In this document: piece by piece, positions 43,332-60,692 of the stretch | Layout of the letters: every line of letters starts with the position of its first letter | Position numbering within the stretch: the stretch's first letter is position 1 | DNA from: a virus | Lineage: Duplodnaviria; Caudoviricetes | Reading direction: 5' to 3' (one strand) | Virus record (IMG/VR): IMGVR_UViG_3300029288_000072 | Span: 96,001 to 160,000 of that record | Length of the DNA: 64,000 nt | Notes under the pieces: generated by a model | The model's input: the letters and a program-made list of their open reading frames with translations, nothing else | Databases searched by the model: none | Told to the model about the DNA's origin: nothing | Position numbers and translations under genes: made by a program

Positions 43332-43399
43332 ATTATAATTGATGATTGGCAAAAGTCAATAAAAACATATTTATAAAAAATAATTATTTTTGATATAAT
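43332..43399. promoter_or_regulatory. Divergent promoter region
   Basis: Minus strand: TTGACT-16-TATAAT (43359-43332) and TATAAATA (43368-43375). Plus strand: TGATATAAT (43391-43399), 7 nt before ATG 43407. Confidence 0.6.
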
Positions 43400-43406
43400 T
43401 TAAAAT

Positions 43407-44492
43407 ATGAAAAAAATATTTGTTTCTGGTTGTTATGACATTATACACGGTGGTCATATAGAATTTTTTAATCAAGTCAAGAACTTGGGTGATTATCTTA
43501 TTGTTAGTATAGCATCAGAAAATGTTTTGTTACATTATAAAAATAGAAAATCATCATTACCAACCGAACATAAAAAAAGATTATTAGAATCTATATCAAT
43601 AATAGATAAAGTTGTCGTTAGTGATTCTATAGAGTTTAATGGGTTGGATTTTATAGATAATTTTAAAGAATTAAAACCCGATGTATTAATATCTACAGAA
43701 GATGATAAGTTTAAAGCAGAAAAGAAATTATTTTGTGATTCGTGTGACTGGAAACCACAATATATTAATTTACCAAAAACACTAAATTATGAAAAAATAT
43801 CAACAACTGATATTGTTAATTGGATAAAAGCACCAAAAGAAGTTCCTCTTAGAGTAGATTTTGCTGGAGGATGGTTGGATGTTCCAAAATTTTCAACTAA
43901 AGGTGCATTTATTGTAAATTGTACTATATCACCAAAAGTAGATTTAAATAACTGGAATTATAATATAGGTGGTGGGCTGGGTGGATCTGCGGCGTATGCT
44001 ATATTAAATGGAAAAAATTCAGTTCAAAGTGAATTAGATCTTGGTGTTGGTTGGCAAGATCCAGCAGCAATACAAGAGACTGGTTTATGTATATGGAGAA
44101 GTGGCTATACTCCAATTTTAGAGGCAAAATATAATCCAGACTGGCTAAATGGTAAAATGGCTTTAAAGTGGACAGGAAAAAATCATACTACATATTCGTT
44201 TACAGACAATAAACGAGATTTTGATAAAATAATATTTGCTGGTCAACAAGCAAAAATAGCTTGCCAGCTAAAATCTTTAACTCAATTAGCATACTCAATA
44301 CATTTATCATATCAATGCCAATTAAATGAAGGAATGGAACCATTAGAAGATTTATCATTGGCAAGAAAATATTGCGGTGGTGGATTTGGTGGTTATGCAT
44401 TATACTTATTTAAATCAAATGATGAAAGAGATTGTTTTGTAGATAAATATAATGGTGTTACAATAGAACCTTATATTAAGGAATATAAATGA
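43407..44492 (+). CDS. Cytidylyltransferase-like (HxGH) + GHMP sugar-kinase fusion
   Basis: VSGCYDIIHGGH at the N-terminus. VPLRVDFAGGWLD, GGGLGGSAA, GWQD and GGGFGG in the C-terminal half. Confidence 0.82.
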   Translation: MKKIFVSGCYDIIHGGHIEFFNQVKNLGDYLIVSIASENVLLHYKNRKSSLPTEHKKRLLESISIIDKVVVSDSIEFNGLDFIDNFKELKPDVLISTEDDKFKAEKKLFCDSCDWKPQYINLPKTLNYEKISTTDIVNWIKAPKEVPLRVDFAGGWLDVPKFSTKGAFIVNCTISPKVDLNNWNYNIGGGLGGSAAYAILNGKNSVQSELDLGVGWQDPAAIQETGLCIWRSGYTPILEAKYNPDWLNGKMALKWTGKNHTTYSFTDNKRDFDKIIFAGQQAKIACQLKSLTQLAYSIHLSYQCQLNEGMEPLEDLSLARKYCGGGFGGYALYLFKSNDERDCFVDKYNGVTIEPYIKEYK

Positions 44493-45868
44493 TAAAATTG
44501 ATAGTATTCGATCTAGATGGTGTATTGGTTGAATCAAAAGAAACACATTTTGAAGCATTAAACATGGCATTGACAGATATAGATAAAAAATATGTGATTT
44601 CACATGATGAACATTTGAAATTTTTTGACGGACTTCCGACCAATAAAAAATTAGAAATATTAACACAAAGAAAAGGATTATTAAAAGAATTTTATCAAGA
44701 AATATGGAATAAGAAACAAAATTATACATTTGATGTTATTAAAAATATTGTAAAAGAAAATAATGAAATTATAGAATTATTTAAAGAATTAAAAAATAGA
44801 GGACTACAAATTTGGGTAGCATCAAACTCAATTAAAAAAACAGTTAAATTATATTTATTAAAACTAGGTTTGATAGAATATGTGGATGATTTCATATCAA
44901 ACGAAGATGTTAAATCACCAAAACCAAAAGCAGAAATGTATCTAAAATGTATGGTAAATACATCATCAGATCCACAAGAAACTGTTGTTGTTGAAGATTC
45001 ATATGTGGGAATAACAGCAGCAAATAAATCTGGCGCACATGTTTGTATTGTAAAAAATTCAACAGAGACTACTAGAAACAAAGTATTATCATTTATTGAT
45101 AAAATAAACGGACAAAATGATTATAAAACAACTTGGGAAGAACCAACCATGAATATTTTAATACCTATGGCCGGTGCGGGTAGTAGATTCGCAACAGCAG
45201 GATATACATTTCCAAAACCATTAATAGAAGTACATGGAAAGCCAATGATTCAAGTTGTAGTAGAAAATATTAATATAAAAGGAAAATACACGTACATTGT
45301 TAGAAAAGAACATCATGAAAAATATAATTTACAATATTTACTGAACATGATAACTCCAAATTGTAATATTGTATGTGTTGATCATTTAACGGATGGTGCC
45401 GCATGCACTACGTTATTAGCAAAAGATTTAATAAATACGGGGGATCCTCTATTAATAGCAAACTCTGATCAATTTGTTGAATGGGATAGTGCATCATTTA
45501 TGTATTCAATGAATTCTGGAATATGGGATGGCGGAATTTTAACATTTGATAATACACATCCAAAATGGAGTTATGTAAAAACTGATGATGATGGATATGT
45601 CACTGAGTTGGCTGAAAAAAAGGTAATTTCAAATACAGCAACAGTTGGAATATATTGGTGGAAAAAGGGTTGTGAATATGTTTCTTATGCTGAACAAATG
45701 ATTAGTAAAAATATTAGGGTTAATAATGAATTCTATGTTGCGCCTGTTTATAACGAAGCAATATCCGATAATAAAAAAATAAAAATATTTAATATAGAAA
45801 GAATGTGGGGTATTGGAACACCAGAAGACCTCGATTACTTCTTAAAAAATTATAAAGGTAAAATATGA
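44489..45868 (+). CDS. HAD phosphatase + sugar-phosphate nucleotidyltransferase fusion
   Basis: FDLDGV, KPKAEMY and VEDS (HAD). ILIPMAGAGSRF..PKPLI, NSDQ, EFYVAPVYN and GTPEDL (nucleotidyltransferase). Confidence 0.88.
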   Translation: MIKLIVFDLDGVLVESKETHFEALNMALTDIDKKYVISHDEHLKFFDGLPTNKKLEILTQRKGLLKEFYQEIWNKKQNYTFDVIKNIVKENNEIIELFKELKNRGLQIWVASNSIKKTVKLYLLKLGLIEYVDDFISNEDVKSPKPKAEMYLKCMVNTSSDPQETVVVEDSYVGITAANKSGAHVCIVKNSTETTRNKVLSFIDKINGQNDYKTTWEEPTMNILIPMAGAGSRFATAGYTFPKPLIEVHGKPMIQVVVENINIKGKYTYIVRKEHHEKYNLQYLLNMITPNCNIVCVDHLTDGAACTTLLAKDLINTGDPLLIANSDQFVEWDSASFMYSMNSGIWDGGILTFDNTHPKWSYVKTDDDGYVTELAEKKVISNTATVGIYWWKKGCEYVSYAEQMISKNIRVNNEFYVAPVYNEAISDNKKIKIFNIERMWGIGTPEDLDYFLKNYKGKI

Positions 45869-46683
45869 AAGTAAATATTTTTATAACAACATATAATGCA
45901 GTTGATGATTTAAATAATTGTTTAAAAAGTTTATTTGAAAGCGATATTAATAAAGTAGAATATTCTGTTAATATTATTAATAATAATACAAATTTTAAAT
46001 TAATTAATAACTATAATGTAAAAATTTATAATAACCAATGTCGTCCAGATTTTTCAACTGGTCATTTGTCTAGAACGTGGAATCAATGTATAATAAATGG
46101 ATTTAAAAGTATAACAAATCCAGATTGTGATGTATTAATTACCATGCAGGATGATCAAATTTTAAAAAATAATTGGTTTTCATTATTATTACCACATATA
46201 GAAAAAAATTCATTTATTGAAATTGGTGGTGGCGATATAATGTGTATATATAAGCCGAGTTCAATATATAATGTCGGTTTATGGGATGAAAGATTTTGTG
46301 GTATAGGTTATCAAGAAGGCGATTATTTTTTAAGACAACTAATTTATAATAAAGAAAATATTTCTATAAACGATTATTGTCATGGAAGAATTTATAATCC
46401 AATTTATGCCATTAGTAATAGAAAGAGAGAAATAGACAACGAATATTTAAGAGTTCCTTCACGTAATAGTGTGCGTAGCACAGCACATCATAAATCTGCC
46501 GCATATCACGATCTTTGTAATAAATTCTTCCTTTTAAAATGGGGAATAGAATCTATTGATTGGAATATTGAACATATAAAGAATAATGTTACTCCGAAAA
46601 TTGATTCATATATTATGTATCCGTATTTTGAATATCAATTAAACCTTCCAGAATTGAGACTCCAACGATATTTTGTTATATAA
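45865..46683 (+). CDS. GT2/GT-A glycosyltransferase
   Basis: IFITTYN, MQDD and VGLWDERF..GYQEGDY. Confidence 0.75.
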   Translation: MKVNIFITTYNAVDDLNNCLKSLFESDINKVEYSVNIINNNTNFKLINNYNVKIYNNQCRPDFSTGHLSRTWNQCIINGFKSITNPDCDVLITMQDDQILKNNWFSLLLPHIEKNSFIEIGGGDIMCIYKPSSIYNVGLWDERFCGIGYQEGDYFLRQLIYNKENISINDYCHGRIYNPIYAISNRKREIDNEYLRVPSRNSVRSTAHHKSAAYHDLCNKFFLLKWGIESIDWNIEHIKNNVTPKIDSYIMYPYFEYQLNLPELRLQRYFVI

Positions 46684-46693
46684 AAGGAAAAAT

Positions 46694-47395
46694 ATGCAAT
46701 TTAGTAATAATGAAAAAGAAATAATAAACACTTCTCAAAAAATTTATGATAGCTTTAATGCTTTTATATTCAGTAATGACACTAAAGTTTTATCGAAATT
46801 AATAGCAAGAACATTATTATTTAATAAAGTAATAGATGTTCCTGGTGATATAGTTGAGTGTGGCGTTTTTAAAGGATCTGGTATTGTATCGTGGTTAAAA
46901 ATAAAAAATATAATCAGTCCAAATATTTTTAAAAAAATTATAGGATTTGATTTCTTTGATACAAATAAATTATTAACTAGTTTAACTGGTGCAGATAAAG
47001 AAAGAATGGAAAATTTATTTTTAAGTAGAAATTTCAATTTAAACGAAAATTATATTCCTATTTTAAAAGAAATTATTAAAAATATAGGATTTGATGAGTC
47101 CAATTTTGAATTAATTTCTGGAGATATTTCTACTACATCTGAAGAATATGTTAGAAATAGACCAGGAGCAAAAATATCTTTGTTATATTTAGATCTAGAT
47201 ATAGAAACCCCAACATATAATACATTAAAACATTTTTGGGATATAATATCATATGGGGGAATAATAGTTTTTGATGAGTATGGATATCATCAATGGTCAG
47301 AAGCAAAGGGGGTTGATGCCTTTTTTAAAGATAAAAAAATAAAAATAAGAAACTTACCATATACAGCACCAACAGCATATGTTATAAAGGAGTAA
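46694..47395 (+). CDS. TylF/MycF-family sugar O-methyltransferase
   Basis: VPGDIVECGVFKGSG, IGFDFF, LLYLDLD and GGIIVFDEY. AAGGA SD before 46694. Confidence 0.85.
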   Translation: MQFSNNEKEIINTSQKIYDSFNAFIFSNDTKVLSKLIARTLLFNKVIDVPGDIVECGVFKGSGIVSWLKIKNIISPNIFKKIIGFDFFDTNKLLTSLTGADKERMENLFLSRNFNLNENYIPILKEIIKNIGFDESNFELISGDISTTSEEYVRNRPGAKISLLYLDLDIETPTYNTLKHFWDIISYGGIIVFDEYGYHQWSEAKGVDAFFKDKKIKIRNLPYTAPTAYVIKE

Positions 47396-47398
47396 TTA

Positions 47399-48106
47399 AT
47401 GAATATTGACATGATAAAAAAATCATTTTTTGAAAATTATAAACATTTTCCTGAAATTGCCCCGCAAAATACACTAATACATAAGATATTTAATGGATGC
47501 AGAATTCATACTAGAAGTGGTATCAAAACACTAATAAAAATTCTAAAACCAAAAAATATTTTAGAAATAGGATCATTGCATTTTGAGACAACAAATCAAA
47601 TGGCATTATCAATGGCTGAATTATTTCCCGCCGACGTTGGTAAAATTCATTCATTTGATATTAAAACTGGTGGATATGATGGTGCAAGACAATGTATTCC
47701 ATTATCAACGAGAATAGTATCTCATATATGGATTCCCCATAAAACATCTTATGATGATTGGAAATACAAAGATGAAGAAATATTAAAAACAGGATTTGCG
47801 GACTTGACAAATGAGCAAATTTTCGAAAAGAATTTGACATATTTAAAATCAATCGCGCCGACTGAAGGATTTGATCTAGTTTATATAGATGGCGATCATT
47901 CATTTCAAGGTACTATGTATGATTATCAATATGCAAAACAAGTAATAAATGAAAACTCTTTTATTGTAGTAGATGATATATGGGATAATAGACTTCATGA
48001 GGTTAGAGAATTTTTTGATAGTCTAAAAAATGATAAATGGGATTTTTATGAGTGGAATATTGCTCACAAAGATATGGTACAAAATATGGGAATATTCAAG
48101 CCATGA
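47399..48106 (+). CDS. Class I SAM methyltransferase (Methyltransf_24-like)
   Basis: KPKNILEIGS, SFDI, FDLVYIDGDHS and IVVDD. Confidence 0.8.
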   Translation: MNIDMIKKSFFENYKHFPEIAPQNTLIHKIFNGCRIHTRSGIKTLIKILKPKNILEIGSLHFETTNQMALSMAELFPADVGKIHSFDIKTGGYDGARQCIPLSTRIVSHIWIPHKTSYDDWKYKDEEILKTGFADLTNEQIFEKNLTYLKSIAPTEGFDLVYIDGDHSFQGTMYDYQYAKQVINENSFIVVDDIWDNRLHEVREFFDSLKNDKWDFYEWNIAHKDMVQNMGIFKP

Positions 48107-48732
48107 TCCATTGTATAGGCAATAGTCATGCAAATGTGTTTGTCGATGCACATCCAGCAAATATGTTTAATACTACATATTTAAACAATTTTTCATCAAC
48201 AAGTATTGGTCCTGTTATAGCATATAATTTTTATGACCATCATTTAAATAAAGTATATGATGTTCTAAAAAAAGTAAAAAAATCACCAAATGACTATGTT
48301 ATGCTAATTGTTGGAGAAGTAGACTGTAGATGGCACTTGCCTAAAAGAATAGACTCTAATAAAGAAGAAATATCTGTAGTAGTAAAAGAATGTATTGATA
48401 GATTCTTTAAATCTGTACTTGAATTGCAATCCCATGGATATAAACTCGTTTCTTGGTGTGGTCATCCCTCCACAACAGCAGGTCACGATGATAATCCAAA
48501 TGAGCCTGTATGGGGAGAATGTTTATTCAGAAATAAAATAAGTATTGAATGGGCAAAATATTTAACTGAAATTAGTAATAATAATAATATTAAGAGTATT
48601 AATATAACAAATGATTTAATAATGGAAAATGGAATTACTAATATGACATATTTTAATGACTATTGCCACTTAAATCATAATAAAATTATGCCATTAGTTT
48701 TAAATAAATGTAGAGAATTAAATATATTATGA
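48103..48732 (+). CDS. SGNH/GDSL-fold protein (esterase/acetyltransferase-like)
   Basis: IGNSH, GEVDCR and a C-terminal DYCH (DxxH). ATGA overlap at 48103. Confidence 0.7.
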   Translation: MIHCIGNSHANVFVDAHPANMFNTTYLNNFSSTSIGPVIAYNFYDHHLNKVYDVLKKVKKSPNDYVMLIVGEVDCRWHLPKRIDSNKEEISVVVKECIDRFFKSVLELQSHGYKLVSWCGHPSTTAGHDDNPNEPVWGECLFRNKISIEWAKYLTEISNNNNIKSINITNDLIMENGITNMTYFNDYCHLNHNKIMPLVLNKCRELNIL

Positions 48733-49352
48733 CCGATATTGTATGTTTTATCCATAGTTATAATATAAACAATTGTAATGAAATATTAAACTATTTCAAT
48801 GAAAAAGGGAAAAATTTTTTTAAAAATTGTAATAATATATTCCATTATAATTATGGCAATAAGCCAGAGAATGACATTTTTAAATCAATAAATTTATTAA
48901 AAGCAGAAGAAATAGAGACTATTAAAAATATATATTCATATTCTCTTAATGAAAATAAAAATACAAAAATATGTTATATTCATACAAAAGGCGTTACTAC
49001 TCCTAATAATATTTGTATAGAAGATTGGCGAAATTATATGTTTTATTTTTGTTGCGAACAGTTTGAAAATATGGTAAAATTATTAGATTCTAATGATACA
49101 TGCGGAGTAGATTTAAAAAATGATCCAGCATTACATTATTCGGGAAATTTTTGGTGGGCAAAGTCTGATTATATTAAAAAATTATGCCATCCAAATAATA
49201 TAAAAAGCCCATTAACAGAAAGACACAAGTCTGAATTTTGGATATGCTCTTCAAATGGCAAACATTTTGGAGTACACGATTCTAAAATTCCAGTATATGA
49301 AAGACATAAATATAGATATCTACCAGAAAACTATAAAGGGCAATTATTATGA
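48729..49352 (+). CDS. Putative glycosyltransferase-associated protein
   Basis: ICYIHTKGV..WRNYM..HYSGNFWWAKSDYI..EFWI, a motif set recalled from viral glycan clusters. Confidence 0.6.
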   Translation: MTDIVCFIHSYNINNCNEILNYFNEKGKNFFKNCNNIFHYNYGNKPENDIFKSINLLKAEEIETIKNIYSYSLNENKNTKICYIHTKGVTTPNNICIEDWRNYMFYFCCEQFENMVKLLDSNDTCGVDLKNDPALHYSGNFWWAKSDYIKKLCHPNNIKSPLTERHKSEFWICSSNGKHFGVHDSKIPVYERHKYRYLPENYKGQLL

Positions 49353-49912
49353 ATTTAAATGATTTGGCAATAAAACATAAAACAGATAAAAGCAACTTGG
49401 GTCACGGATATACAAAATATTATGAGGAATATTTTGAACCTATTAAAGATGATAATTTAAAAATTTTAGAATTGGGTGTTAGAGAAGGATGGTCAATGAC
49501 CATGTGGGAAGAATATTTTCAAAATTCTATTATATATGGGATTGATAATAATTATGAAGGTCTATGCCCAGAAAAATTTGATTCTGAAAGAATAATTTTT
49601 ACTTTATGTTCTCAAACAGATCAAAAAACATTAACTGAATTATCAGAACATGTGGGTGGATTTGATATAATAATAGACGATTGTTCTCATATATCATCAT
49701 TAACAATAAAAAGCTTTTTAATATTATATCCATTATTAAAGCCTAACGGACTCTATGTAATTGAAGATTTACATGTATGTGGATTTTCCGCAGAATATAA
49801 TCCAGATAATTTCACAACAATACAATTTTTAAGCACTCTAAAACATGATGAAGATAAAATCATAAATTTTCATTTAAATCAAAAAATATGTTTTATTAGG
49901 AAAACTTTATAA
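49349..49912 (+). CDS. Class I SAM O-methyltransferase (MycE/TylE-like)
   Basis: TDKS..HGYTKYYE..ILELGV..IYGID..FDIIIDDCSH..GLYVIEDL. Confidence 0.82.
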   Translation: MNLNDLAIKHKTDKSNLGHGYTKYYEEYFEPIKDDNLKILELGVREGWSMTMWEEYFQNSIIYGIDNNYEGLCPEKFDSERIIFTLCSQTDQKTLTELSEHVGGFDIIIDDCSHISSLTIKSFLILYPLLKPNGLYVIEDLHVCGFSAEYNPDNFTTIQFLSTLKHDEDKIINFHLNQKICFIRKTL

Positions 49913-49913
49913 T

Positions 49914-50612
49914 ATGTTTATTATTTCATGTAAATATACTAAAACAAGCAATCATATTATTAATTTAGTGTCTGATATTAGAAAATATCATGATGATGAA
50001 AAAATTTTAGTTGTTGACTCGGATTCATCAGATAAAACATATTTTAATGCTTTAGAAAAATATAATGCAGAAATTTTAGATGTAGCAAATCAAAATTGGA
50101 TGGTAGGTGCATATTGGAAAGGATTTTTTAAATATCCAAATGAAAATTTTTATTATTGTTTTCATGATTCAATGCGTGTAAAAGATAATTTAGACTATTT
50201 AAAACAAAAAGAATTAACAATGTTAGCAACCTTTAATCGGACTGGCCATATAAGTTTTAATGCATGGAATAAAAGAATAAATACTGAAACAAAATATAAA
50301 GTAACAAATACTGGATATGGATGTTATGGTCCAATTTTTATGATTTCTAATAGATTATTTACTAACTTATATAATAATAATGCACATGTTTTATTACCAG
50401 CAAATAAAGCCGAAACTGGATTTATGGAGGGGGCATTTGGGGCATTGTTTGAATGTGAAGGGTTCAATTTAATGGAGTGTTCTTTATATGGAGATATTCT
50501 AGAACAAGAGTCTCCTGGCGGGAAATCATATCCTCAACCTTTTTATACTGGATGGCAATATCCTATAGAAAAATTTTATGCTTCTCATATAGATAATACT
50601 AGGAAACTCTAA
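49914..50612 (+). CDS. Putative GT-A glycosyltransferase
   Basis: ILVVDSDS and YYCFHDSM; cluster context. Confidence 0.55.
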   Translation: MFIISCKYTKTSNHIINLVSDIRKYHDDEKILVVDSDSSDKTYFNALEKYNAEILDVANQNWMVGAYWKGFFKYPNENFYYCFHDSMRVKDNLDYLKQKELTMLATFNRTGHISFNAWNKRINTETKYKVTNTGYGCYGPIFMISNRLFTNLYNNNAHVLLPANKAETGFMEGAFGALFECEGFNLMECSLYGDILEQESPGGKSYPQPFYTGWQYPIEKFYASHIDNTRKL

Positions 50613-52105: not shown

Positions 52106-52108
52106 AAT

Positions 52109-53659
52109 ATGTATAAAGTGTTATTAACAACAAGCGGAACTGGTAGTAGACTAGGAAATATTACAAAATTTACAAACAAATCTCTTGTAAGAGTTGGGAA
52201 AAAACCATCTATTTCATATATTATAGAACAATATCCTTCTGATGTTGAATTCGTTGTTACATTGGGGTATTTTGGTAGTCAAGTTAAAGATTTCTTAGAA
52301 TTGGCATATCCTAATAAAAAATTTACATTTGTTGAAATTGATAAATATGAGGGTGAAGGAAGTAGTCTTTTATATTCTATTAGTAAAACAGAAAAATATT
52401 TACAAGAGCCATTTATATTTCATGCATGTGATACTATTACATTTGATGAAATATTACCACCAACACAAAATTGGTTGGCCGGGTGTTCTTCTGGCGACCC
52501 ATCACAATATAGATCATTTAATACATTAAATGATAAAGTTATATGTTTAAATGAAAAAGGAGAGAGTAATTGTAATTATTATTATATGGGAATATGTGGA
52601 ATAAAAGATTATGAGTTTTTTTGGGATAGATTAAAAACTATTTTAAAAGAAAATGCAAAAGAACAATCTTTATCAGATTGTCATGTAATACGAGATTTAT
52701 TATTACATAAAGACGTGACATATAAAGAATTTACAAGTTGGTTAGATATAGGAAACATGAAAGGTCTTTCTCATGCAAGAACTCATATAAATGACGAATT
52801 TCATATATTAGATAAAGATGATGAAAGCATTTTTATTTTTGAAAATTTTGTTATAAAATTCTTTTATGATAAAAAAACATGTTTAAATAGAGTAAAACGG
52901 GGTGATATATTATATCCATATGCACCAAAAATGTTAGGATATAGAGATAATTTTTACAAATATGAATATGCTAAAGGAGACTTATTATCCAGAGCAGCTA
53001 CAGAAGAAAATATAGAAAAATTAATAAATTGGGCATCTGCGTGTATCTGGAATACAAAAACAAATGAAGAGTTTGAAAAGATTTGTGAAGACTTTTATAT
53101 AAAGAAAACAGAAAAAAGATTGTTGGATTTTTATAATAAAAATAATATAAAAGATTGTTCTGAAACTATAAATGGATACAAAATTCCTCCATTATTCGAC
53201 TTATTAGGAAGAGCAAAAGAAATATTATTAAAAGATTGCATTCCTACAGGATTCCATGGAGACTTTATTTTAGATAATATATTAATTGATAAAGATAATT
53301 TTATTTTACTTGATTGGAGACAGGATTTCGGTGGAAAAATTGATATAGGTGATATGTATTATGATTTAAGCAAACTAAATCATAATTTTATTGTTAATCA
53401 TGATATTGTAAATAATAATTTATTTACAATTAATATTGATAAAAATAATATATCATGTGATATTTTATGTCATTATAATCTTATAAAATGTCAACAAAGA
53501 TTTTTGGATATAGTTAATAAAAAAGGATTCAACATTAAAAAGATAAAAATATTAACTTCTATTATATGGTTAAATATGTCGCCACTACATGAATATAAGG
53601 TTGGATTATTCTTATATTATTTTGGAAAATATAATCTCTGGAGAACATTAAATGTTTAA
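52109..53659 (+). CDS. Nucleotidyltransferase + APH/choline-kinase-like phosphotransferase fusion
   Basis: SGTGSRLG..NKSL, FHACD and WLDIG in the N-terminal half. FHGDFILDNIL..LLDWR..YYDLSKL in the C-terminal half. Confidence 0.85.
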   Translation: MYKVLLTTSGTGSRLGNITKFTNKSLVRVGKKPSISYIIEQYPSDVEFVVTLGYFGSQVKDFLELAYPNKKFTFVEIDKYEGEGSSLLYSISKTEKYLQEPFIFHACDTITFDEILPPTQNWLAGCSSGDPSQYRSFNTLNDKVICLNEKGESNCNYYYMGICGIKDYEFFWDRLKTILKENAKEQSLSDCHVIRDLLLHKDVTYKEFTSWLDIGNMKGLSHARTHINDEFHILDKDDESIFIFENFVIKFFYDKKTCLNRVKRGDILYPYAPKMLGYRDNFYKYEYAKGDLLSRAATEENIEKLINWASACIWNTKTNEEFEKICEDFYIKKTEKRLLDFYNKNNIKDCSETINGYKIPPLFDLLGRAKEILLKDCIPTGFHGDFILDNILIDKDNFILLDWRQDFGGKIDIGDMYYDLSKLNHNFIVNHDIVNNNLFTINIDKNNISCDILCHYNLIKCQQRFLDIVNKKGFNIKKIKILTSIIWLNMSPLHEYKVGLFLYYFGKYNLWRTLNV

Positions 53660-54209
53660 TATTAACTATGTATCTACCTTATTATCAAGGGAGTTTCCTC
53701 ACATTTTAGAGTTTGGAGTATATAAAGGATATACTATTTCTCAAATCAAAAAATATGTCAGAGAAGATTATAAAATATACGGATTTGATTCGTTTGAGGG
53801 TCTTCCAGAAGATTGGGAAAATACTGTTTGTAAAAAAGGGGTTTTTTCTACTAATGGGGCTATTCCAAGTATTCCCGGTGTTAAATTTTTTAAAGGTTTG
53901 TTTGATGATACAATAAAAGAATATTTAAAAGAAGCAGATAATATATCATTATTACATGTAGATTGTGATTTATATTCATCAACAAAAACTGTTCTTTGGA
54001 ATTTGAATGACTATATAAAGAAAGACACTATTATCGTATTTGATGAGTGGTTTTACTGTTCTGACTATGGTTATAAATTTAATTCAGATCATGAACAAAA
54101 ATGTTTTTATGAGTGGTGTCGGGAGTTTAATAGAGATTATGATTTTTTTGATGATAATACTAGAGACGAAAATGCACACGAAAGAAAATTAGTGAGGATT
54201 ATAAAATGA
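53652..54209 (+). CDS. TylF-like SAM methyltransferase
   Basis: LEFGVYKG, YGFDSFEGLPEDW, LLHVDCDLYSS and IVFDE. Confidence 0.85.
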   Translation: MFNINYVSTLLSREFPHILEFGVYKGYTISQIKKYVREDYKIYGFDSFEGLPEDWENTVCKKGVFSTNGAIPSIPGVKFFKGLFDDTIKEYLKEADNISLLHVDCDLYSSTKTVLWNLNDYIKKDTIIVFDEWFYCSDYGYKFNSDHEQKCFYEWCREFNRDYDFFDDNTRDENAHERKLVRIIK

Positions 54210-55168
54210 AATATTGTATTGGTCCTATGTCAAGAAATGTCGTTGATACTATTATAAATTTTTCAAATAATTATAATATAAAAATAGGTCTTATACCATC
54301 ACGAAGACAAATTGAATTTAATGGTGGTTATTCTAATAATTGGACAACATACGAATTTTCTAAATATGTAAAATCAAAATCAAAAAACATTTTTTTACAG
54401 CGTGATCATGGTGGCCCAAAACAGGGGGCAAAAGATGATGACGGATTTACATCATTTGCTGTAGATAGTTTAACTTTAGATTCAATTCATATTGATCCTT
54501 GGAAATATACAAAGGATTTAACTGAAGGAATAAATAAAACAGTAGAATATATAGATTTCTGTCTATCAATTAATAAAAATATAAAATTTGAGGTTGGTAC
54601 AGAGGAATCAATAAGAAGATTTTCTAATGAAGATTTAGATCAACTTCTAAAAACTCTTGAAAATAAATTAATTGATAAATTTGAAACTATTTTGTATGTT
54701 GTAATTCAAGGAGGAACCGCATTAAAAGAAAATACAAATACTGGCAATTTTGACGAACAAAGATTATCCGATATGATACAAATATGTAAAAAATATAACA
54801 AGTTAACAAAAGAACATAATGGAGACTATATAACACAAGATTGTAAAAATAGAAAATTTAACTTTGGGTTAGACTGTATTAATATTGCACCAGAATTTGG
54901 ATTAATAGAGACAAAAACAATTATGCAATATATAAATGAATATGAATTTGAAACGTTCTTTAATATCTGTTATACATCTAAAAAATGGGAAAAATGGGTT
55001 TCTGCGGATTTCGACCCTTATAAAAATAAAAAAACATTAATAGAAATTTGTGGTCATTATGTTCTTTCTAACCATATAGTCAACTCTTGGATAGAAAATA
55101 AGCATTTACATGCTATAATATATAAAAATATAGAAGGAAAATTAAAAGAATTATATGGAATTAAATAA
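54206..55168 (+). CDS. GatZ/KbaZ-like (tagatose-phosphate epimerase family) TIM-barrel protein
   Basis: SRRQIEFNGGY, RDHGGP, IHIDP, EVGTEE, VVIQGGT, KEHNGDY and NIAPEFG. Confidence 0.72.
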   Translation: MKYCIGPMSRNVVDTIINFSNNYNIKIGLIPSRRQIEFNGGYSNNWTTYEFSKYVKSKSKNIFLQRDHGGPKQGAKDDDGFTSFAVDSLTLDSIHIDPWKYTKDLTEGINKTVEYIDFCLSINKNIKFEVGTEESIRRFSNEDLDQLLKTLENKLIDKFETILYVVIQGGTALKENTNTGNFDEQRLSDMIQICKKYNKLTKEHNGDYITQDCKNRKFNFGLDCINIAPEFGLIETKTIMQYINEYEFETFFNICYTSKKWEKWVSADFDPYKNKKTLIEICGHYVLSNHIVNSWIENKHLHAIIYKNIEGKLKELYGIK

Positions 55169-55484
55169 CATAAAAAATATGATAAAAGGATGGTTTATAG
55201 GAGATATAACACCAGTCGCATTTAAATCGTCCGCATGTGAAGTTGCCTTTAAAGAATATAAAAAAGGTGATTATGATAAGTCACATTATCATAGAATCGC
55301 AACAGAAATAACTTTAATAGTATATGGTAAAGTTGAAATGAATAAAGTTGTTTATGAAAAGGGTGATATTATAACAATAAATCCCAATGATATAACAGAT
55401 TTTCTTGCGTTAGAAGATAGTGCTACAGTTGTTGTAAAAATCCCTGGAGAAAAAAATGATAAATATGAAGTTCATATCTCATAG
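55155..55484 (+). CDS. Cupin-domain protein
   Basis: KGWFIGD..HYHRIATEIT..GDII..VVVKIPG..DKY. Confidence 0.75.
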   Translation: MELNNIKNMIKGWFIGDITPVAFKSSACEVAFKEYKKGDYDKSHYHRIATEITLIVYGKVEMNKVVYEKGDIITINPNDITDFLALEDSATVVVKIPGEKNDKYEVHIS

Positions 55485-55917
55485 AGGTAATATTTTAGGT
55501 AAAAATCCAGAAAAAGAGAATACGTTAGAATATATTTATTCTGCAATAGATCGCGGATTTGATGTTGAAATTGATTTATGGTTTAAAGATGAAACATTCT
55601 ATTTGGGTCATGATGTCCCAACTCATAAAGTTAAACTTTCTGAAATACAACATCCAAATTTATGGATTCATGCAAAAAATCTCGAAGCTTTAAGATTGAC
55701 ATCAAAAATTTTAAATACGTTTTATCATACTGATGAAGACTATGTATTAACATCAAGAGGATATATATGGACATATCCTGGGAAAAAATTAAATTCTGAA
55801 TGTATATGTGTTTTACCCGAAACTGTTAATTATGAATTTGAAGAAATTTTATTATCAAATGGAATATGTTCAGATTATATAGCATCATATAGGAATATGT
55901 TTCCATGTTATCAATAA
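55465..55917 (+). CDS. Glycerophosphodiester phosphodiesterase-like (PLC-like) protein
   Basis: FISHRGN..ENT..FDVEIDLW..LGHD..WIHAKN..GICSD. Confidence 0.8.
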   Translation: MKFISHRGNILGKNPEKENTLEYIYSAIDRGFDVEIDLWFKDETFYLGHDVPTHKVKLSEIQHPNLWIHAKNLEALRLTSKILNTFYHTDEDYVLTSRGYIWTYPGKKLNSECICVLPETVNYEFEEILLSNGICSDYIASYRNMFPCYQ

Positions 55918-56813
55918 ATTTCCTACCATTTGAACGACCACATTTAATGTTAAGAACATTACAAAATTGGTCAAATATAAGCGAAAATTATAAAGATAAA
56001 TTTACAATTAATATTCATACAAAAATAGATGATACTTTTTTTAATCAGATTAAAGATGAGTTTAATAAAAATAATATACTATTAAATATAATATATCATC
56101 CATCTCATCATTATATGACAAAAATATATTCATCATCAAGTACTGAGGCTGAATATTCTATGAAAATTGATGAAGATATTTTTATAAATTTTCATGTACT
56201 TGAATATATTATTGATAATTTACCATTATTAAACAACGAATCTACCCTTATATTAACACCAACATTATCTACAGGAATTCCATCTATAGAAATGTTTATA
56301 GAAGATGTTTGTACGGATGATGAAAAAAATATATTATTTAATTTGTTTAAAAATACTCATATTCCTAGTATATGGGGGGCAAATTATACATCGTTAAATT
56401 ATCATAAAAAAACTTGGGATTATGGCCATTACTATAATATGGTTGCAACACTCTCTCATCATTATAAAGGTATACATCCAGTTAGAGTAAATCGACAGCC
56501 CCAATTATTATTGTGTGATTTGTGTATAAAATATATAGATAAAATAAAAAATAAAAATAATTACTATATTGATTGCAAACATATAACATATATATGTAAT
56601 ACGGTTTTTATAATAAAAACTGATATATGGAGAAATATTATAAATAACAAATCTTTATTTAGAGATGATTATGATGAAGTTCCATTAAATTTATATATGA
56701 AAAATCATAATCATAAAGTGTGTTTTATTAGAAATTCGAATGGTATACATCCAAGTTATAATACACTTGTTGGATATTCAGAAATATCAGATAAATTTTT
56801 TAATGCGTTATAA
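55905..56813 (+). CDS. Putative GT-A glycosyltransferase
   Basis: YSMKIDEDIF (DxD motif); cluster context. Confidence 0.6.
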   Translation: MLSINFLPFERPHLMLRTLQNWSNISENYKDKFTINIHTKIDDTFFNQIKDEFNKNNILLNIIYHPSHHYMTKIYSSSSTEAEYSMKIDEDIFINFHVLEYIIDNLPLLNNESTLILTPTLSTGIPSIEMFIEDVCTDDEKNILFNLFKNTHIPSIWGANYTSLNYHKKTWDYGHYYNMVATLSHHYKGIHPVRVNRQPQLLLCDLCIKYIDKIKNKNNYYIDCKHITYICNTVFIIKTDIWRNIINNKSLFRDDYDEVPLNLYMKNHNHKVCFIRNSNGIHPSYNTLVGYSEISDKFFNAL

Positions 56814-56823
56814 AGGAAACCCC

Positions 56824-57507
56824 ATGAAATTCACATTCGGAATTATAACGGCTGGCAACGATAATTTTATACATAATATAATTAATTCAATAGAATCCCA
56901 AATTCCTCCAGATTGTTATGAAATAATAATAATTGGGAACTCATCTATTAATAAAAACAATACAAAAATTATTCCATTTGATGAAAATATTAAACCCATG
57001 TGGATAACAAAGAAAAAAAATATAATAACAGAAAATGCAAAATTTGAAAATATAGTATATATGCATGATTATATTTCATTAGAATCTAATTGGTATAACG
57101 GATTTTTACAATTTGGTGATGATTTTAATGCATGTATGACTAAAATAATTAATACTGATGGAAGTAGATTTAGAGATTGGACATTGTTTCCGTTATTTTC
57201 TAATGTTCAGGCATTAAATATACCAAAACAAAGAAATTTATTGCCGTATAATATAACTCATATGTCCAAATATCAATATTTTTCCGGTGCTTATTGGGTA
57301 GCAAAAAAATCAATAATGCAAGAATTTCCATTAAATGAAGCATTGTCATGGGGGCAAAGCGAAGATATTGATTGGTCACAAAGATATACATCAAAATATG
57401 TTTTTTCTATAAATCCACTATCAACTGTAAAATTATTGAAATTTAAACCTAGAATTTTTGACGAATTAACGTCACAAGATTTACAAAAAATAAATGGAAT
57501 AAAATGA
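56824..57507 (+). CDS. GT2-like glycosyltransferase (start refined to 56824)
   Basis: FTFGIIT, YEIIIIG, KKNI..AKFENIVYMHDY and WGQSEDIDWS. AAGGA SD. Confidence 0.78.
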   Translation: MKFTFGIITAGNDNFIHNIINSIESQIPPDCYEIIIIGNSSINKNNTKIIPFDENIKPMWITKKKNIITENAKFENIVYMHDYISLESNWYNGFLQFGDDFNACMTKIINTDGSRFRDWTLFPLFSNVQALNIPKQRNLLPYNITHMSKYQYFSGAYWVAKKSIMQEFPLNEALSWGQSEDIDWSQRYTSKYVFSINPLSTVKLLKFKPRIFDELTSQDLQKINGIK

Positions 57508-58301
57508 TTAATATTATTATTTTCAGTAAAGATAGAGCATGTCAATTGCATTATCTTTTAGAAACATTAAAATTAAATTTTAAAGAGTACTATTTTGAAA
57601 AAATAAAAGTTATATATAAATATAAAAATCAAATACATCAAACTGCATATGATATATTAAAAACAACATTTCCTGAAATAGAATATTTTTGCCAAAATAC
57701 AAATAAATTATCGTTTAAAGATTTAATATTACAAAATATAAATGAAAATAACAAATTAACTGTATTTTTTGTAGATGATATGTTTATAAAAAATAGATTT
57801 TCTTTAGATGATGCCGAAATACAAATGATGAATAATAATGAGAATGCGTGCGTTTCTTTAAGGATGAATGATGGGATGAATTATTGTCAGCCAGCAAAAC
57901 TTAAATATACAACAATTCCTACCATTATAGATAATAGATGGAAATGGAGAGGACAACAAGGAGATTGGGGTTATCCTATGTCTCTTGATGGACATATCTT
58001 TAGAACTAATGAAATAAAACATAAAATATCTATTATAAACTTTGAAAATCCAACATATTTAGAATCTCATCTTAGTGGATTATTGCCAGAGCAAGAATAT
58101 ATGATTTGTTATAAAAGATCAATTGTAATAAATAATCCAATGAATAGAGTACATAATTTTAATTTAAATCCGTGTTCAAATATTTCAGAAGATTATTTGT
58201 GTAAAGAATATTTAGATGGAAAAAAATTGAAGAGTACAATACCACCAGAAGAAATTATAAATAATTCCCCACACTATCAGTTAGAAACAATTTTATATTG
58301 A
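57504..58301 (+). CDS. Putative GT-A glycosyltransferase
   Basis: IIIFSKDRACQL, FFVDD and WGYPMSLDGHIF. Confidence 0.65.
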   Translation: MINIIIFSKDRACQLHYLLETLKLNFKEYYFEKIKVIYKYKNQIHQTAYDILKTTFPEIEYFCQNTNKLSFKDLILQNINENNKLTVFFVDDMFIKNRFSLDDAEIQMMNNNENACVSLRMNDGMNYCQPAKLKYTTIPTIIDNRWKWRGQQGDWGYPMSLDGHIFRTNEIKHKISIINFENPTYLESHLSGLLPEQEYMICYKRSIVINNPMNRVHNFNLNPCSNISEDYLCKEYLDGKKLKSTIPPEEIINNSPHYQLETILY

Positions 58302-59113
58302 TCCAAATTTATTTTGGATAATATTACATCTAATATATTATTTTCCGGTGTTAAGTATTTTTTAGATAATTCAAAATTTTCTTTAATATATTCCAATTTT
58401 GAATTATAATCATTTTCAGATATTATATTTAATATATTATTTAATTCTTCAATTGAACTGAATGTATAAAACCCATTATTATTAAAATATTTATGTATGG
58501 AATCACACCCCCAATAAATTGGTATTGTTGCCGTGGCAAAACAATCAATTATTTTTTCTGTAAAATATGTATCTTTTTTGCAATTTTCTATTGATATAGA
58601 ATATCTAAAATCTTTTAATGCCTCAATTTTTTCATTAATCGGTAAATATCCTCTTCCACATATAAAATCTATTTTATTTCTATATTTTGATACTATTTTA
58701 TGCCGCAAATCATGTCCTTCTAAATGTTTTTTGTTGCTCGCAATAATAGATATATTTTTATGTTTATTAAATATTTTTATATTTTCTTTGCTCATCCAAC
58801 AACCACCAAGAAAATATTGTAAATATTTTTCTCCTCTTGATAATAAGTCAGTATCAAATGTTAAAATATAATTAAAATTATTTTCATATTGTTGTATTTC
58901 ATCATATAAATTTTTTGTAACATATGGAGATTCTATTAGTAATGCAATTTTTGTTTTACCAATTGCTGGATTTGAAAAATTTGATGTATAAAATACAACT
59001 TCGTCCATCATAGATACATTTCTATCCCATATAATATTTTGATCCAATTGATGCATATTACCTAAACAATGTATATGAGAAAAAAATGAATCAACAATTT
59101 TTAATTTATACAT
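58277..59113 (-). CDS. GT10 (alpha-1,3-fucosyltransferase-like) glycosyltransferase
   Basis: YSISIENCKKDTYFTEKIIDCFATATIPIYWG matches the GT10 motif. Confidence 0.85.
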   Translation of the reverse strand: MYKLKIVDSFFSHIHCLGNMHQLDQNIIWDRNVSMMDEVVFYTSNFSNPAIGKTKIALLIESPYVTKNLYDEIQQYENNFNYILTFDTDLLSRGEKYLQYFLGGCWMSKENIKIFNKHKNISIIASNKKHLEGHDLRHKIVSKYRNKIDFICGRGYLPINEKIEALKDFRYSISIENCKKDTYFTEKIIDCFATATIPIYWGCDSIHKYFNNNGFYTFSSIEELNNILNIISENDYNSKLEYIKENFELSKKYLTPENNILDVILSKINLDQYKIVSN

Positions 59114-59886
59114 TATTTACACCAATTCCAATTTTTTATAGTATTTTTCAGTTGATCTTTAGACATTCTAGATATTTCATTAAATAATCTTTGGTTATTA
59201 GTGGTTATATCTTTCATGGAGTAATTAATAGAACTTCTATCATGATTTAGATGAAATAAAGATCCATTAACTCTTCCGATTCTAAGTCCCAAAATCCTGC
59301 TTCTTGTAACACGTTCATCATCCTCAAATCCCCAGCCAACAAAATTTTCATTTTCCATTCCAGATTCTATATATTTTTCTTTGTTCCACATAACACATCC
59401 ACCAATTGCATGATCATTCCACCATTCAAGTTTATCTTTTGTGTATAAAGAAAAATCATATCCAGAATCTATTACTGTCTGTGTATTATGTAATCTAACA
59501 TTATAAAAATGTCCATCATATGGATAACACATGTCAAATTGATTGTTTTTTATTAAATTATAACATTCTATTATCTGAGTATTTGGAATAAACGCATCTG
59601 TATCACAATTTAAAATAATTGATGTTTCTGTATTTTTACATAATGTATTAAATGTTTTAGTTTTTAATATATATTCATTGGGATTTTCTAAAAATATATA
59701 CTTTGTTTTGAACTTTTCGCATATATCCAATAATTTAGTTGATTTTTCTTTATTACATTCACAAATAGTAATATTGCAAATAAAACATTGTTTAAAATAA
59801 TTTAAAAGTATAACCAGATTATCAAATCTATCTTGACTATCAATTTTAACAGGTATGTTTATTGATAATTCACTCAAATCAATCAT
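59113..59886 (-). CDS. GT2/GT7-C-terminal galactosyltransferase-like enzyme
   Basis: NCDTD, IGGC, GMENENFVGWGFEDDE and LFHLNH. Confidence 0.82.
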   Translation of the reverse strand: MIDLSELSINIPVKIDSQDRFDNLVILLNYFKQCFICNITICECNKEKSTKLLDICEKFKTKYIFLENPNEYILKTKTFNTLCKNTETSIILNCDTDAFIPNTQIIECYNLIKNNQFDMCYPYDGHFYNVRLHNTQTVIDSGYDFSLYTKDKLEWWNDHAIGGCVMWNKEKYIESGMENENFVGWGFEDDERVTRSRILGLRIGRVNGSLFHLNHDRSSINYSMKDITTNNQRLFNEISRMSKDQLKNTIKNWNWCK

Positions 59887-60692
59887 TTATGCGTATCCCA
59901 AAATATTTTTGCTTCTTGCATTTGCTCTTCGGTTAGTGTTCTAAATGGGTTTGAATCTCTTTGACATATTCTAACTTTCCATTGAGCATACACAGGATCA
60001 TCTTCATGTGGGTGAATAACTGAACAAGTTTCAAAAATTTGTATTGATCTTTTTAAATTATATACATCCATTAAAAAATATGCATCGTCTCCTGCGTATA
60101 CTCCCATAACTTTATATCCACCAATTAATTTCCATAGTTTATTTTCGAAGAAAATGCATCCTCCAGCTATACCCCCCCCACCATCAGGAAAGCAATGTGC
60201 CTCATATCTTCCAAATTTATTATCATATTCTACTCGTTGATTATAACAGAAAGATAAATGGCAGTTGTTTCCTGATTGATTTAAAGATAACATCCCAAAG
60301 GGTATACCTCGTATAACAGGAGATATTTCAGCAGCATTAATAAGACGCTCAAACATCTTATATTCTTCTTTTAAGAATAAAATGTCGCTATCAGCAGTTA
60401 ATACATATTTTGTATCTACATCTTTCATTAATGTATTAACAACTTTTCCTTTACCATAATTCTTGTCAAATTTTTTCAAAATAAACTTCCTTCCTGCAAA
60501 CTCTCTAGTAACAACTTCTGATATTAATGGCCAATATTCGTCCTTTGCCCACCCACCAAAATAAAATTCTATATCATCAAATGGATGACATTGTAAATGA
60601 ACCGACATACTATGTAATGAATCTAAATTTCTATCTAACCGTATCTTATCTGGTGCAAATATAGGCTGCACATATGCCATTATTTTACTCAT
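59883..60692 (-). CDS. GT2-like glycosyltransferase
   Basis: NYGKG..N, TADSD, IAGGC..WKLIGGY and YAGDD. Confidence 0.75.
   Translation of the reverse strand: MSKIMAYVQPIFAPDKIRLDRNLDSLHSMSVHLQCHPFDDIEFYFGGWAKDEYWPLISEVVTREFAGRKFILKKFDKNYGKGKVVNTLMKDVDTKYVLTADSDILFLKEEYKMFERLINAAEISPVIRGIPFGMLSLNQSGNNCHLSFCYNQRVEYDNKFGRYEAHCFPDGGGGIAGGCIFFENKLWKLIGGYKVMGVYAGDDAYFLMDVYNLKRSIQIFETCSVIHPHEDDPVYAQWKVRICQRDSNPFRTLTEEQMQEAKIFWDTHK

Follow-up and report, generated by a model that had tools for sequence, protein, structure and literature searches.

The window analysed here, a 64,000-nt stretch corresponding to bases 96001-160000 of a 198,442-bp IMG/VR virus record (IMGVR_UViG_3300029288_000072; CheckV completeness 84%), contains at positions 43407-60692 an island of 23 genes, g1 to g23, among them sugar-activating enzymes, glycosyltransferase-like proteins and methyltransferases. 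Positions are those of the window unless given as genome positions. Sequence places the uncultured carrier among distant T4-like phages: the medium subunit of its topoisomerase II shares 32% identity with T4-like phage counterparts and a baseplate hub/tail lysozyme PHROG match is present, with no gp23-type capsid gene found in the 84%-complete 198-kb contig. Open reading frame (ORF) calling placed 20 of the genes on the plus strand (43407-58301) and three on the minus strand (58277-60692), converging on each other, and so confirmed the tightly coupled layout that a first-pass annotation of this DNA had described. After the starts of g6, g12, g17 and g19 were moved to those common to their homologues, the island junctions were overlaps of 1-29 nt or gaps of at most 10 nt. 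The convergent g20 and g21 overlap by 25 nt, and a 4-nt overlap joins the start of g23 to the stop of the topoisomerase II gene. The island is flanked by the topoisomerase on one side and by lysozyme/3D-domain genes on the other; 27 of the 28 ORFs of at least 150 amino acids (aa) in window 1-43400 are on the minus strand. GC content is 0.24-0.29 in the island and 0.24-0.35 in the rest. Below, g11, g12, g13 and g15 are referred to as the core cassette, and the gene set that recurs in other viral contigs as the module. SAM stands for S-adenosylmethionine, and GT-A for a glycosyltransferase (GT) fold. The features are as follows.

Intergenic gap, 43334-43406, the sole one in the island, upstream of g1: TGnTATAAT extended -10 box on the plus strand; TATAAATA late box on the minus strand.
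g1, 43407-44492, plus strand: TagD- or RfaE domain II-like nucleotidyltransferase fused to a GHMP-type sugar kinase half.
g2, 44489-45868, plus strand: beta-phosphoglucomutase-like HAD domain fused to a sugar-1-phosphate nucleotidyltransferase.
g3, 45865-46683, plus strand: possible GT-A enzyme, weak (Glycos_transf_2 E 0.0043, below cut-off; PHROG galactosyl transferase E 0.006).
g4, 46673-47395, plus strand: TylF-like SAM methyltransferase (TylF 2.3e-8, Methyltransf_24 2.6e-6), start probably the ATG at 46694.
g5, 47399-48106, plus strand: Methyltransf_24-class SAM methyltransferase, 43% identity in module relatives.
g6, 48052-48732, plus strand: SGNH/GDSL hydrolase or acyltransferase-type protein, real start about 48103.
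g7, 48729-49352, plus strand: conserved module protein, 29-47% identity in relatives.
g8, 49349-49912, plus strand: Methyltransf_24/31-class methyltransferase (E 3.6e-5, just below cut-off).
g9, 49914-50612, plus strand: virus-restricted family, possible GT-A enzyme, a lead only.
g10, 50612-51406, plus strand: GT-A-fold glycosyltransferase-like protein.
g11, 51406-51771, plus strand: small HAD phosphatase, IIIA-like, of the core cassette (HAD_PNKP 2.6e-8, HAD-SF-IIIA 2e-6).
g12, 51746-52105, plus strand: phosphomannose isomerase (PMI)-type cupin, aldose-ketose isomerase-like, of the core cassette, start probably 51764.
g13, 52109-53659, plus strand: nucleotidyltransferase (residues 1-230) fused to a choline-kinase/APH-fold kinase (about 240-516), of the core cassette.
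g14, 53652-54209, plus strand: TylF-like O-methyltransferase (TylF 2e-11).
g15, 54206-55168, plus strand: GatZ/KbaZ-type class II aldolase-fold enzyme, of the core cassette.
g16, 55155-55484, plus strand: small cupin, weak (Cupin_2 E 0.004), 50-55% identity in relatives.
g17, 55456-55917, plus strand: small conserved protein with an HRG...E.D...HD motif, its GDPD (glycerophosphodiester phosphodiesterase)-like label unconfirmed.
g18, 55905-56813, plus strand: possible GT-A enzyme, weak (Galactosyl_T E 0.006; DED motif with invariant D89, E90 and D91).
g19, 56740-57507, plus strand: possible GT-A enzyme, weak, real start about 56824 (homologues begin at M29).
g20, 57504-58301, plus strand: member of a large unannotated family.
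g21, 58277-59113, minus strand: GT10-type (fucosyltransferase-family) enzyme (Glyco_transf_10 2.2e-7, above cut-off).
g22, 59113-59886, minus strand: GT2 plus Glyco_transf_7C (Glyco_transf_7C 6.9e-8, above cut-off; GT2 0.0038).
g23, 59883-60692, minus strand: probable GT2 (Glycos_transf_2 2.1e-4, 21.7 bits against a cut-off of 23.3).

The core cassette includes an enzyme, g15, that Pfam did not match; a Prochlorococcus homologue reached only E 3.7e-4 and 19.7 bits against the PF08013 cut-off of 26.7. A profile of 14 g15 homologues searched against the Protein Data Bank (PDB) retrieved E. coli GatZ (2fiq, 3.2e-6), and the AlphaFold2 (AF2) model of g15, with a predicted local distance difference test score (pLDDT) of 92, matched 3txv (E 1.9e-13) and 2fiq (E 1.7e-12) in Foldseek with template modelling (TM) scores of 0.73-0.80, closer than it came to the true class II aldolases fructose-bisphosphate aldolase (FBA) and KbaY. 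GatZ and KbaZ turn fructose-6-P into tagatose-6-P at a site formed by Asp87, His88, Glu171 and His257 (PMC11907403, a 2025 paper). In the hidden Markov model (HMM) alignment these GatZ residues (D87, H88, E171, H257) align with the invariant D67, H68, E133 and H204 of the g15 family, giving a site of two His plus Glu, unlike the three His of FBA. The GatZ-like enzyme claimed in the first-pass annotation was thus borne out by fold, profile match and all four GatZ catalytic residues. Compared with GatZ/KbaZ (2fiq; S. meliloti 3txv), g15 has the same fold and the same Asp-His/Glu/His site but is about 100 residues shorter, with 12-14% identity in the structural alignment, and it sits in a biosynthetic, nucleotide-activation context, whereas GatZ and KbaZ sit in galactitol or N-acetylgalactosamine (GalNAc) catabolism. 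On sequence and model, 'GatZ-type enzyme' is therefore a more fitting name for g15 than 'GatZ orthologue', and the protein is probably a ketose-phosphate C4 epimerase or aldolase.

The cupin g12 matched MannoseP_isomer, the type II phosphomannose-isomerase family, over the full profile length (3.3e-12) as well as Cupin_2 (1.2e-7). In the viral contigs L020 and L021, g12 and g13 form one ORF (L020:9623-11530, 635 aa), which links their functions. The AF2 model of g13 had a pLDDT of 93; the transferase domain dominated the whole-model fold search, and the nearest relatives of the kinase half were tied. In a VIA fold search residues 1-230 resembled LicC (Z 26.2) and RmlA-type enzymes (Z 25.8), and the kinase half resembled choline/ethanolamine kinase (Z 16.6), fructosamine-3-kinase (15.9), LicA (15.8) and methylthioribose (MTR) kinase (15.3); the g13 profile retrieved LicC from the PDB (2.9e-10). 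LicC and LicA thus lead the fold and profile matches, but sugar-1-P transferases and fructosamine/MTR kinases score nearly equally.

The other two fusions were also firm calls. The g1 protein matched Pfam CTP_transf_like (9.5e-15), PDB 1coz (1.9e-13) and, both below cut-off, NCBIfam g3p_cytidyltrns (5e-14) and rfaE_dom_II (1.2e-13), and its C-terminal half carries the GHMP-kinase motifs GGWLD and GGGLGGSAA. The g2 protein matched HAD_2 (2e-29) and NTP_transferase (4.6e-11); it is 57% identical to homologues in Synechococcus phages S-CAM9 and S-PRM1 and in DSL-LC03, and 56-60% identical among module relatives. Three bifunctional sugar-activating enzymes had been claimed and all three stand. Because each of the fusions pairs a phosphoryl-handling domain with a nucleotidyltransferase, the phage itself can, as judged from these domains, make up to three activated donors (g1, g2, g13).

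We propose that in the core cassette g15 would epimerise or condense a ketose phosphate such as fructose-6-P, the g12 cupin would interconvert ketose to aldose, the g13 kinase half and the g11 phosphatase would shift the phosphate to the activating position, and the g13 nucleotidyltransferase half would yield a nucleoside diphosphate (NDP)- or cytidine diphosphate (CDP)-linked rare sugar. Such a product could be an NDP-hexose, with tagatose, talose and galactose as the candidate series. The NDP-heptose pathway comprises the GmhA isomerase, the HldE/HddA kinase, the GmhB HAD phosphatase and the HldE/HddC nucleotidyltransferase; it follows the same order of chemistry that we infer for g12, g13 and g11 (isomerise, phosphorylate, dephosphorylate, nucleotidylate) and likewise has a kinase-nucleotidyltransferase fusion and a HAD-IIIA-type phosphatase. 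By contrast, the island uses a cupin in place of an SIS isomerase, a choline-kinase fold in place of a ribokinase or GHMP fold and a different nucleotidyltransferase fold, and it adds the GatZ-type step. The NCBIfam heptose equivalogs were unmatched, g1 scoring 51 bits against rfaE_dom_II (cut-off 181) and 38 against HldE (cut-off 521); no SIS isomerase match was found in the island, and g11 matched the generic HAD-IIIA domain only. Our literature search found no paper that describes a cassette of GatZ-type enzyme, cupin and nucleotidyltransferase-kinase.

The activated sugars would be used by the glycosyltransferases, for which the earlier count of eight to ten proved generous: g10, g21 and g22 are firm, g3, g9, g18, g19 and g23 are weak, and g7 and g20 are unsupported. 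The ESM Atlas model of g10 gave TM scores of 0.66-0.73 to GT2/GT7C, Branch (GT14-type) and GT6 clusters, with Atlas relatives in Uroviricota and Nucleocytoviricota and no Pfam, PDB-sequence or cultured-phage match. The GT10-type g21 is 34-43% identical to proteins of cyanophages S-T4, S-SM2 and S-SCSM2R (annotated GT10) and of uncultured phages of 636-735 kb. For g9, which had no PDB, Pfam or cultured-phage match, the nearest Atlas clusters (394 members) are 99% viral, and 10% of one neighbouring cluster is GT2. Profiles of g9, g10 and g19 retrieved nothing significant from the PDB sequences; the best for g19 was glycosyltransferase 6p61 (E 0.035, N-terminal region only). No glycosyltransferase evidence was obtained for g20, whose family comprises at least 1,398 clusters (at 90% identity) of metagenome proteins, all without annotation or Pfam match (the Pfam search of the homologues was empty) and several on contigs of 325-369 kb, nor for g7, which with four homologues had no Pfam or PHROG match. 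In hhalign g3, g7, g9, g10, g18, g19 and g20 were linked neither to one another nor to g22 and g23; the all-against-all comparison of the 23 families returned only the expected pairs g4/g14 (93.7%), g12/g16 (70%), g2/g13 and g2/g11.

Several further enzyme claims of the first-pass annotation could be assessed in the same way. Its four SAM methyltransferases, two of them TylF-like (g4 and g14), were recovered, g5 and g8 matching Methyltransf_24; g8 has homologues in L008, L009, L019, L040 and L111. Its SGNH protein is g6, which carries the block I motif IGDSHS at the conserved start and four of whose five homologues match Lipase_GDSL_2 (best E 5.9e-4), and its HAD phosphatase is g11. The two cupins reduce to one firm case, the PMI-type g12, with g16 weak only (Cupin_2, at the E value listed). 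The GDPD-like protein, g17, is a weaker case than claimed: the resemblance is confined to the motif, and a Pfam search of six family members gave zero matches. The protein belongs to phrog_34507, of unknown function (1.9e-28), with invariant H9, R10, G11, E38, D40, H52 and D53, and is 39% identical to its S-CAM9 homologue.

None of these proteins appears to be membrane-bound. In a crude Kyte-Doolittle scan the best 19-residue hydropathy was below 1.6 in all 23 island proteins, and the same kind of scan across the whole contig found one ORF with at least three hydrophobic segments, of 210 aa and 70 kb from the island. That scan gave no candidate for a flippase, a polymerase or a multi-transmembrane WecA-type protein in the 198-kb contig, and PF02397 (the Bac_transf priming transferase) was absent from the contig in a search that was positive in 10 control genomes. 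The absence of membrane proteins and exporters, asserted at the outset, is thus upheld, and the evidence supports a glycan pathway of several soluble enzymes, O-methyltransferase-type ones among them, that is carried by the phage and has no export machinery.

The island has relatives in other viruses. A g13 query retrieved 19 IMG/VR loci, all with g13 and g15 and nearly all also with g12 and g11 alongside (g11 was found in 15 of the viral loci). At least seven other viral contigs hold 14-16 of the 23 island genes, reordered and at 30-62% identity. In three module-bearing contigs (G002-G004; 156-261 kb, 48-89% complete) a gp23-type capsid gene (606-614 aa) lies 7-12 kb from the module. Compared with the 261-kb contig G003, 29 of the 275 ORFs of the phage found a match, 14 of them in the island with a median identity of 51.9% and 15 in the backbone (31.1%). 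The phages that share the module are thus far less alike than the module itself; this pattern points to horizontal spread or to very strong selection, and it excludes a chimera. A chimeric assembly with a bacterial locus, the objection raised by the first-pass annotation against itself, was rejected on the uniform GC content, the 4-nt topoisomerase coupling, the phage-type promoter boxes at the left junction and the occurrence of the module in seven other viral contigs. No nucleotide-level relative of the island turned up among 50,697 phage records by megablast, and a topoisomerase search for backbone relatives returned one distant locus only. Among cultured phages, homologues of g2 and g17 occur in Synechococcus myoviruses such as S-CAM9 and homologues of g21 in several cyanophages; for g13 and g15 the sole close match in the phage search was a marine single-cell viral contig. 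The island is best explained as a real phage module that spreads horizontally and acts wholly in the host cytoplasm.

The core cassette extends well beyond viruses. A scan with the g15 alignment of one genome per prokaryotic species gave 80 loci in bacteria and archaea, 33 of which have a g13 homologue 0.7-5.7 kb from g15; 27 of these 33 also have g12, and some have a HAD gene. The carriers are Legionellales, Flavobacteriaceae, many lineages of the candidate phyla radiation (CPR), DPANN archaea, Prochlorococcus, Pelagibacteraceae, Bdellovibrionota, Planctomycetota and Verrucomicrobiota. In the Prochlorococcus locus the cassette is flanked by genes for a HAD protein, a formyltransferase, a polysaccharide deacetylase and a WavE-like protein, an environment of surface-polysaccharide genes. 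Among cellular g15 homologues the closest, at 48-55% identity, are single genes of marine Flavobacteriaceae, for example L027:9995-10960; they stand between C-N hydrolase and succinate dehydrogenase genes, a housekeeping setting, without a kinase or transferase partner. A more distant relative is found in Enterococcus phage 9183 (L022:7645-9620, ORF046-047), where a small HAD gene accompanies a g13-like fusion (23% identity over 95% of the query) among genes for a dUTPase, a thymidylate synthase, an RNase H, a 'nucleotide sugar synthetase-like' protein, a thymidine kinase and a polymerase; this pair may represent a DNA-modification use of the same enzymes.

As to when the island is expressed, only its single intergenic gap is informative. 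The TGnTATAAT box in this gap ends 7 nt before the g1 ATG, with no Shine-Dalgarno sequence, and the TATAAATA late box on the minus strand serves the divergent 3D-domain gene. A consensus promoter and terminator scan did no better than shuffles in this AT-rich DNA, and TATAAATA was not enriched overall. We suggest that the island would be read from a host-type promoter before the late genes, so that donors and enzymes would be ready when the structural proteins appear.

What the glycan would be attached to is a more difficult question. We tentatively favour, at somewhat under an even chance, a pathway in the cytoplasm by which the phage decorates Ser/Thr-rich fibre or capsid proteins of its own with a methylated glycan. 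With g1 and g2 providing two further donors, the three firm and up to five weaker glycosyltransferases would build an oligosaccharide, the four TylF/Methyltransf_24 enzymes would O-methylate it, and the SGNH protein g6 may add or remove an acyl group. In the least certain step, the acceptor would be a poly-Ser protein, collagen-like Gly-Thr-Thr/Ser fibre proteins or the capsid, which would give the virion a methylated glycan coat.

The evidence for virion proteins as the acceptor is circumstantial. The sole cultured-phage homologues of g14 are enzymes of cluster O mycobacteriophages, encoded by the gene that precedes three glycosyltransferase genes: g14 is 41% identical (E 1e-23) to the Corndog O-methyltransferase gp35, with 114 Mycobacterium phage records matching. 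[quoted passage not shown] The same phage encodes candidate O-glycan acceptors, as judged from their composition: a 649-aa protein whose poly-Ser runs are interrupted by lone Asp, Phe or Tyr residues (genome 79626-81575, minus strand), and fibre-size proteins with collagen-like Gly-Thr-Thr/Gly-Thr-Ser repeats (window 11129-14794, minus strand; genome 94515-96263, that is, window 1-263, minus strand). In G003 two adjacent proteins of 427 and 1,725 aa with mucin-like Thr-Pro-Thr-x repeats lie about 10 kb from the module (L107:4336-10823, equal to G003 4835-11322). The placement of the module 7-12 kb from the capsid gene in G002-G004 fits the same reading. Moreover, the module moves between unrelated phages, which is easier to understand if the acceptor is a phage feature.

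Several points weigh against virion proteins as the acceptor. No acceptor gene lies within or beside the island, and G002 has no mucin-like protein near its module, so that the mucin-like proteins of G003 are not firm evidence. The three Corndog glycosyltransferases have no homologue among the 23 island proteins by tblastn; only g14 and, weakly, g4 match that locus, and a TylF-type methyltransferase could methylate any glycan. Homologous cyanophage genes are conventionally read as host-surface genes (PMC1079782, PMC12801897), and cellular copies of the core cassette adjoin lipopolysaccharide (LPS)-type genes. We infer the identity of the sugar purely from the enzymes, and the modelled LicC/LicA-like folds of g13 would fit a CDP-alcohol or phospho-substituent donor equally well. 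Finally, the sole promoter-like site of the operon is of the sigma-70 type, an extended -10 box that differs from the TATAAATA late box of the neighbouring gene, and g21-g23 follow the topoisomerase, so that the island and the virion genes are probably not expressed at the same time.

Remodelling of the host envelope is a serious rival explanation, though one that we consider less likely. Here the soluble transferases would act at the inner membrane face on the undecaprenyl-linked intermediates of host LPS, capsule or S-layer glycans, combining phage-made donors with a host priming enzyme, flippase and ligase, and the altered surface would exclude other phages or stop re-adsorption of progeny. 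Peripheral GT-A enzymes without transmembrane segments commonly act on lipid-linked acceptors, and an early/middle-type promoter suits action on a living host. Published work interprets two cyanophage gene sets in this way, the 'LPS' genes of P-SSM2 (24) and the cell-wall genes of S-SCSM2R (22), and g2, g17 and g21 have 35-57% identical homologues in such cyanophages; however, this surface reading likewise has no experimental backing. The cellular cassettes adjoin WavE-like, formyltransferase and polysaccharide-deacetylase genes and multi-transmembrane proteins, but no priming transferase, flippase, polymerase or ligase was found anywhere in the phage contig. Eight to ten transferases and four methyltransferases, moreover, make most of a glycan rather than a tweak, and the module occurs in very different phages, presumably with different hosts and glycans, which an acceptor travelling with the phage explains more easily.

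Hypermodification of DNA, in which a glycan on a modified base would block restriction as glucosylated hydroxymethylcytosine (hmC) does in T4, is improbable. The phage is T4-like, the operon is probably early, the island abuts the topoisomerase with thymidylate synthase 4-5 kb away, and the HAD and g13-like fusion of Enterococcus phage 9183 lies among nucleotide-metabolism genes. Diverse DNA glycans made by viral glycosyltransferases have also been reported (Pyle et al. 2024, cited in PMC12619734). Against this, the sole thymidylate-synthase homologue in the contig (window 38764-39774, minus strand) is a bona fide dTMP synthase: it is eukaryote-like (E 1e-99 to the shrimp, rat and human enzymes, eukaryotic inserts present), keeps the catalytic PPCH and the Asn of DTHIYLNH, and looks catalytically intact. 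No Tet/JBP homologue was found in the 84%-complete contig, although the missing 16% of the genome limits such absences; the T4 beta-glucosyltransferase family PF09198 was unmatched, but the control of that search was positive nowhere, and PF11440 was not searched. The number of transferases and methyltransferases is, in addition, far above that of known DNA glycans. A free cytoplasmic product, either a soluble methylated oligosaccharide or a sugar-phosphate solute that alters host metabolism or counters a defence, is very improbable: all the enzymes are soluble, no acceptor or export gene is linked, and sets of soluble glycosyltransferases and SAM-methyltransferases make cytoplasmic methylated (polymethylated) polysaccharides in mycobacteria, but there is no homology evidence for the mycobacterial system, and three donors and a GT10/GT7C-type enzyme would be unneeded.

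Returning to the virion as the acceptor, a broader proposal, doubtful as a whole, would join it to the cassette: the quartet of cupin, nucleotidyltransferase-kinase, GatZ-type barrel and HAD would be an unrecognised but widespread pathway to a nucleotide-activated rare hexose (of the talose, tagatose or galactose series, through C4 epimerisation of fructose-6-P) in phages, CPR, DPANN, Prochlorococcus, Pelagibacter and Bdellovibrionota, and jumbo T4-like phages would have built a portable 16-gene module around it, with which they give their Ser/Thr-rich fibres or their capsid a methylated, mucin-like glycan coat. If this proposal is true, T4-like phages would have a self-sufficient system of virion glycosylation, the first of its kind in them and on a par with those of giant viruses.

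The closest known systems are the sugar clusters of cyanomyoviruses (P-SSM2, S-SCSM1, S-SCSM2R and S-CAM9). Like the island, these are sets of 10-25 clustered soluble sugar-nucleotide and glycosyltransferase genes in large T4-like aquatic phages, and TagD-like and GT10 genes occur in both. Only three of the 23 island genes are common to them, however (g2 at 57%, g17 at 39% and g21 at 34-38% identity), and the island has no short-chain dehydrogenase/reductase (SDR) epimerase/dehydratase, 3-deoxy-D-manno-octulosonate (Kdo) or rhamnose genes. No cultured cyanophage has a homologue of the GatZ-type cassette, the TylF-type methyltransferases, g9, g10 or g20. Clusters of this size, with 24 'LPS' genes in P-SSM2 and 22 cell-wall genes including 13 glycosyltransferases in S-SCSM2R, have been in print since 2005 (PMC1079782, PMC12801897). 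The first-pass description of the island as an undescribed system was therefore an overstatement; g2, g17 and g21, moreover, have homologues in such phages. What is new here is the conserved, portable 16-gene module and the GatZ-type activation cassette common to many uncultured prokaryotes. Catalogues of large sugar clusters in lytic aquatic phages go back twenty years, and to our knowledge no product or acceptor has been demonstrated for any of them in that time.

Two other systems invite comparison. The gp35-38 operon of Corndog (cluster O/F; Freeman et al. 2023, as summarised in PMC11600133 and PMC12619734) resembles the island in combining an O-methyltransferase with several soluble glycosyltransferases and no export genes. 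It has four genes against the island's 23 and no sugar-activation genes, and lies in the structural module beside the major head gene; the island has lysis-type genes on one side and topoisomerase on the other. Clusters of the chlorovirus and mimivirus type provide host-independent cytoplasmic synthesis of rare, methylated sugars for virion proteins, in eukaryotic hosts. The giant-virus parallel drawn in the first-pass annotation holds in part, in that the g10 family has look-alike clusters in Nucleocytoviricota; no common pathway genes were demonstrated.

The compact four-gene cassette, the mobile conserved module and the candidate acceptors in the same genome are testable handles on phage sugar clusters. 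If the acceptor is the virion, phage particles of seas and lakes may bear self-made glycan coats that affect adsorption, grazing, immune-like recognition and stickiness; if it is the host surface, lytic infection reworks host glycans to an extent for which lysogenic conversion has so far been the only example. With either acceptor, the GatZ-type cassette would add a new route to activated rare sugars that is used also by many uncultured bacteria and archaea, and the unannotated g20 family shows the extent of uncharted chemistry.

The promoter arrangement of g1 recurs elsewhere in the phage. TGnTATAAT boxes 6-9 nt before an ATG, with no Shine-Dalgarno sequence, occur at window 43391-43409, 24879 (minus strand) and 42652 (minus strand) and at genome positions 71966, 160043 and 181061, which suggests that genes with such close boxes have leaderless mRNAs. 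Genes of the early array instead have TTGACA-17-TATAAT promoters about 20 nt before an AAGGAG site. Across the contig, the strong Shine-Dalgarno sites and the canonical TTGACA/TATAAT early promoters speak against Bacteroidota as the host, despite the Flavobacteriaceae kin of g15.

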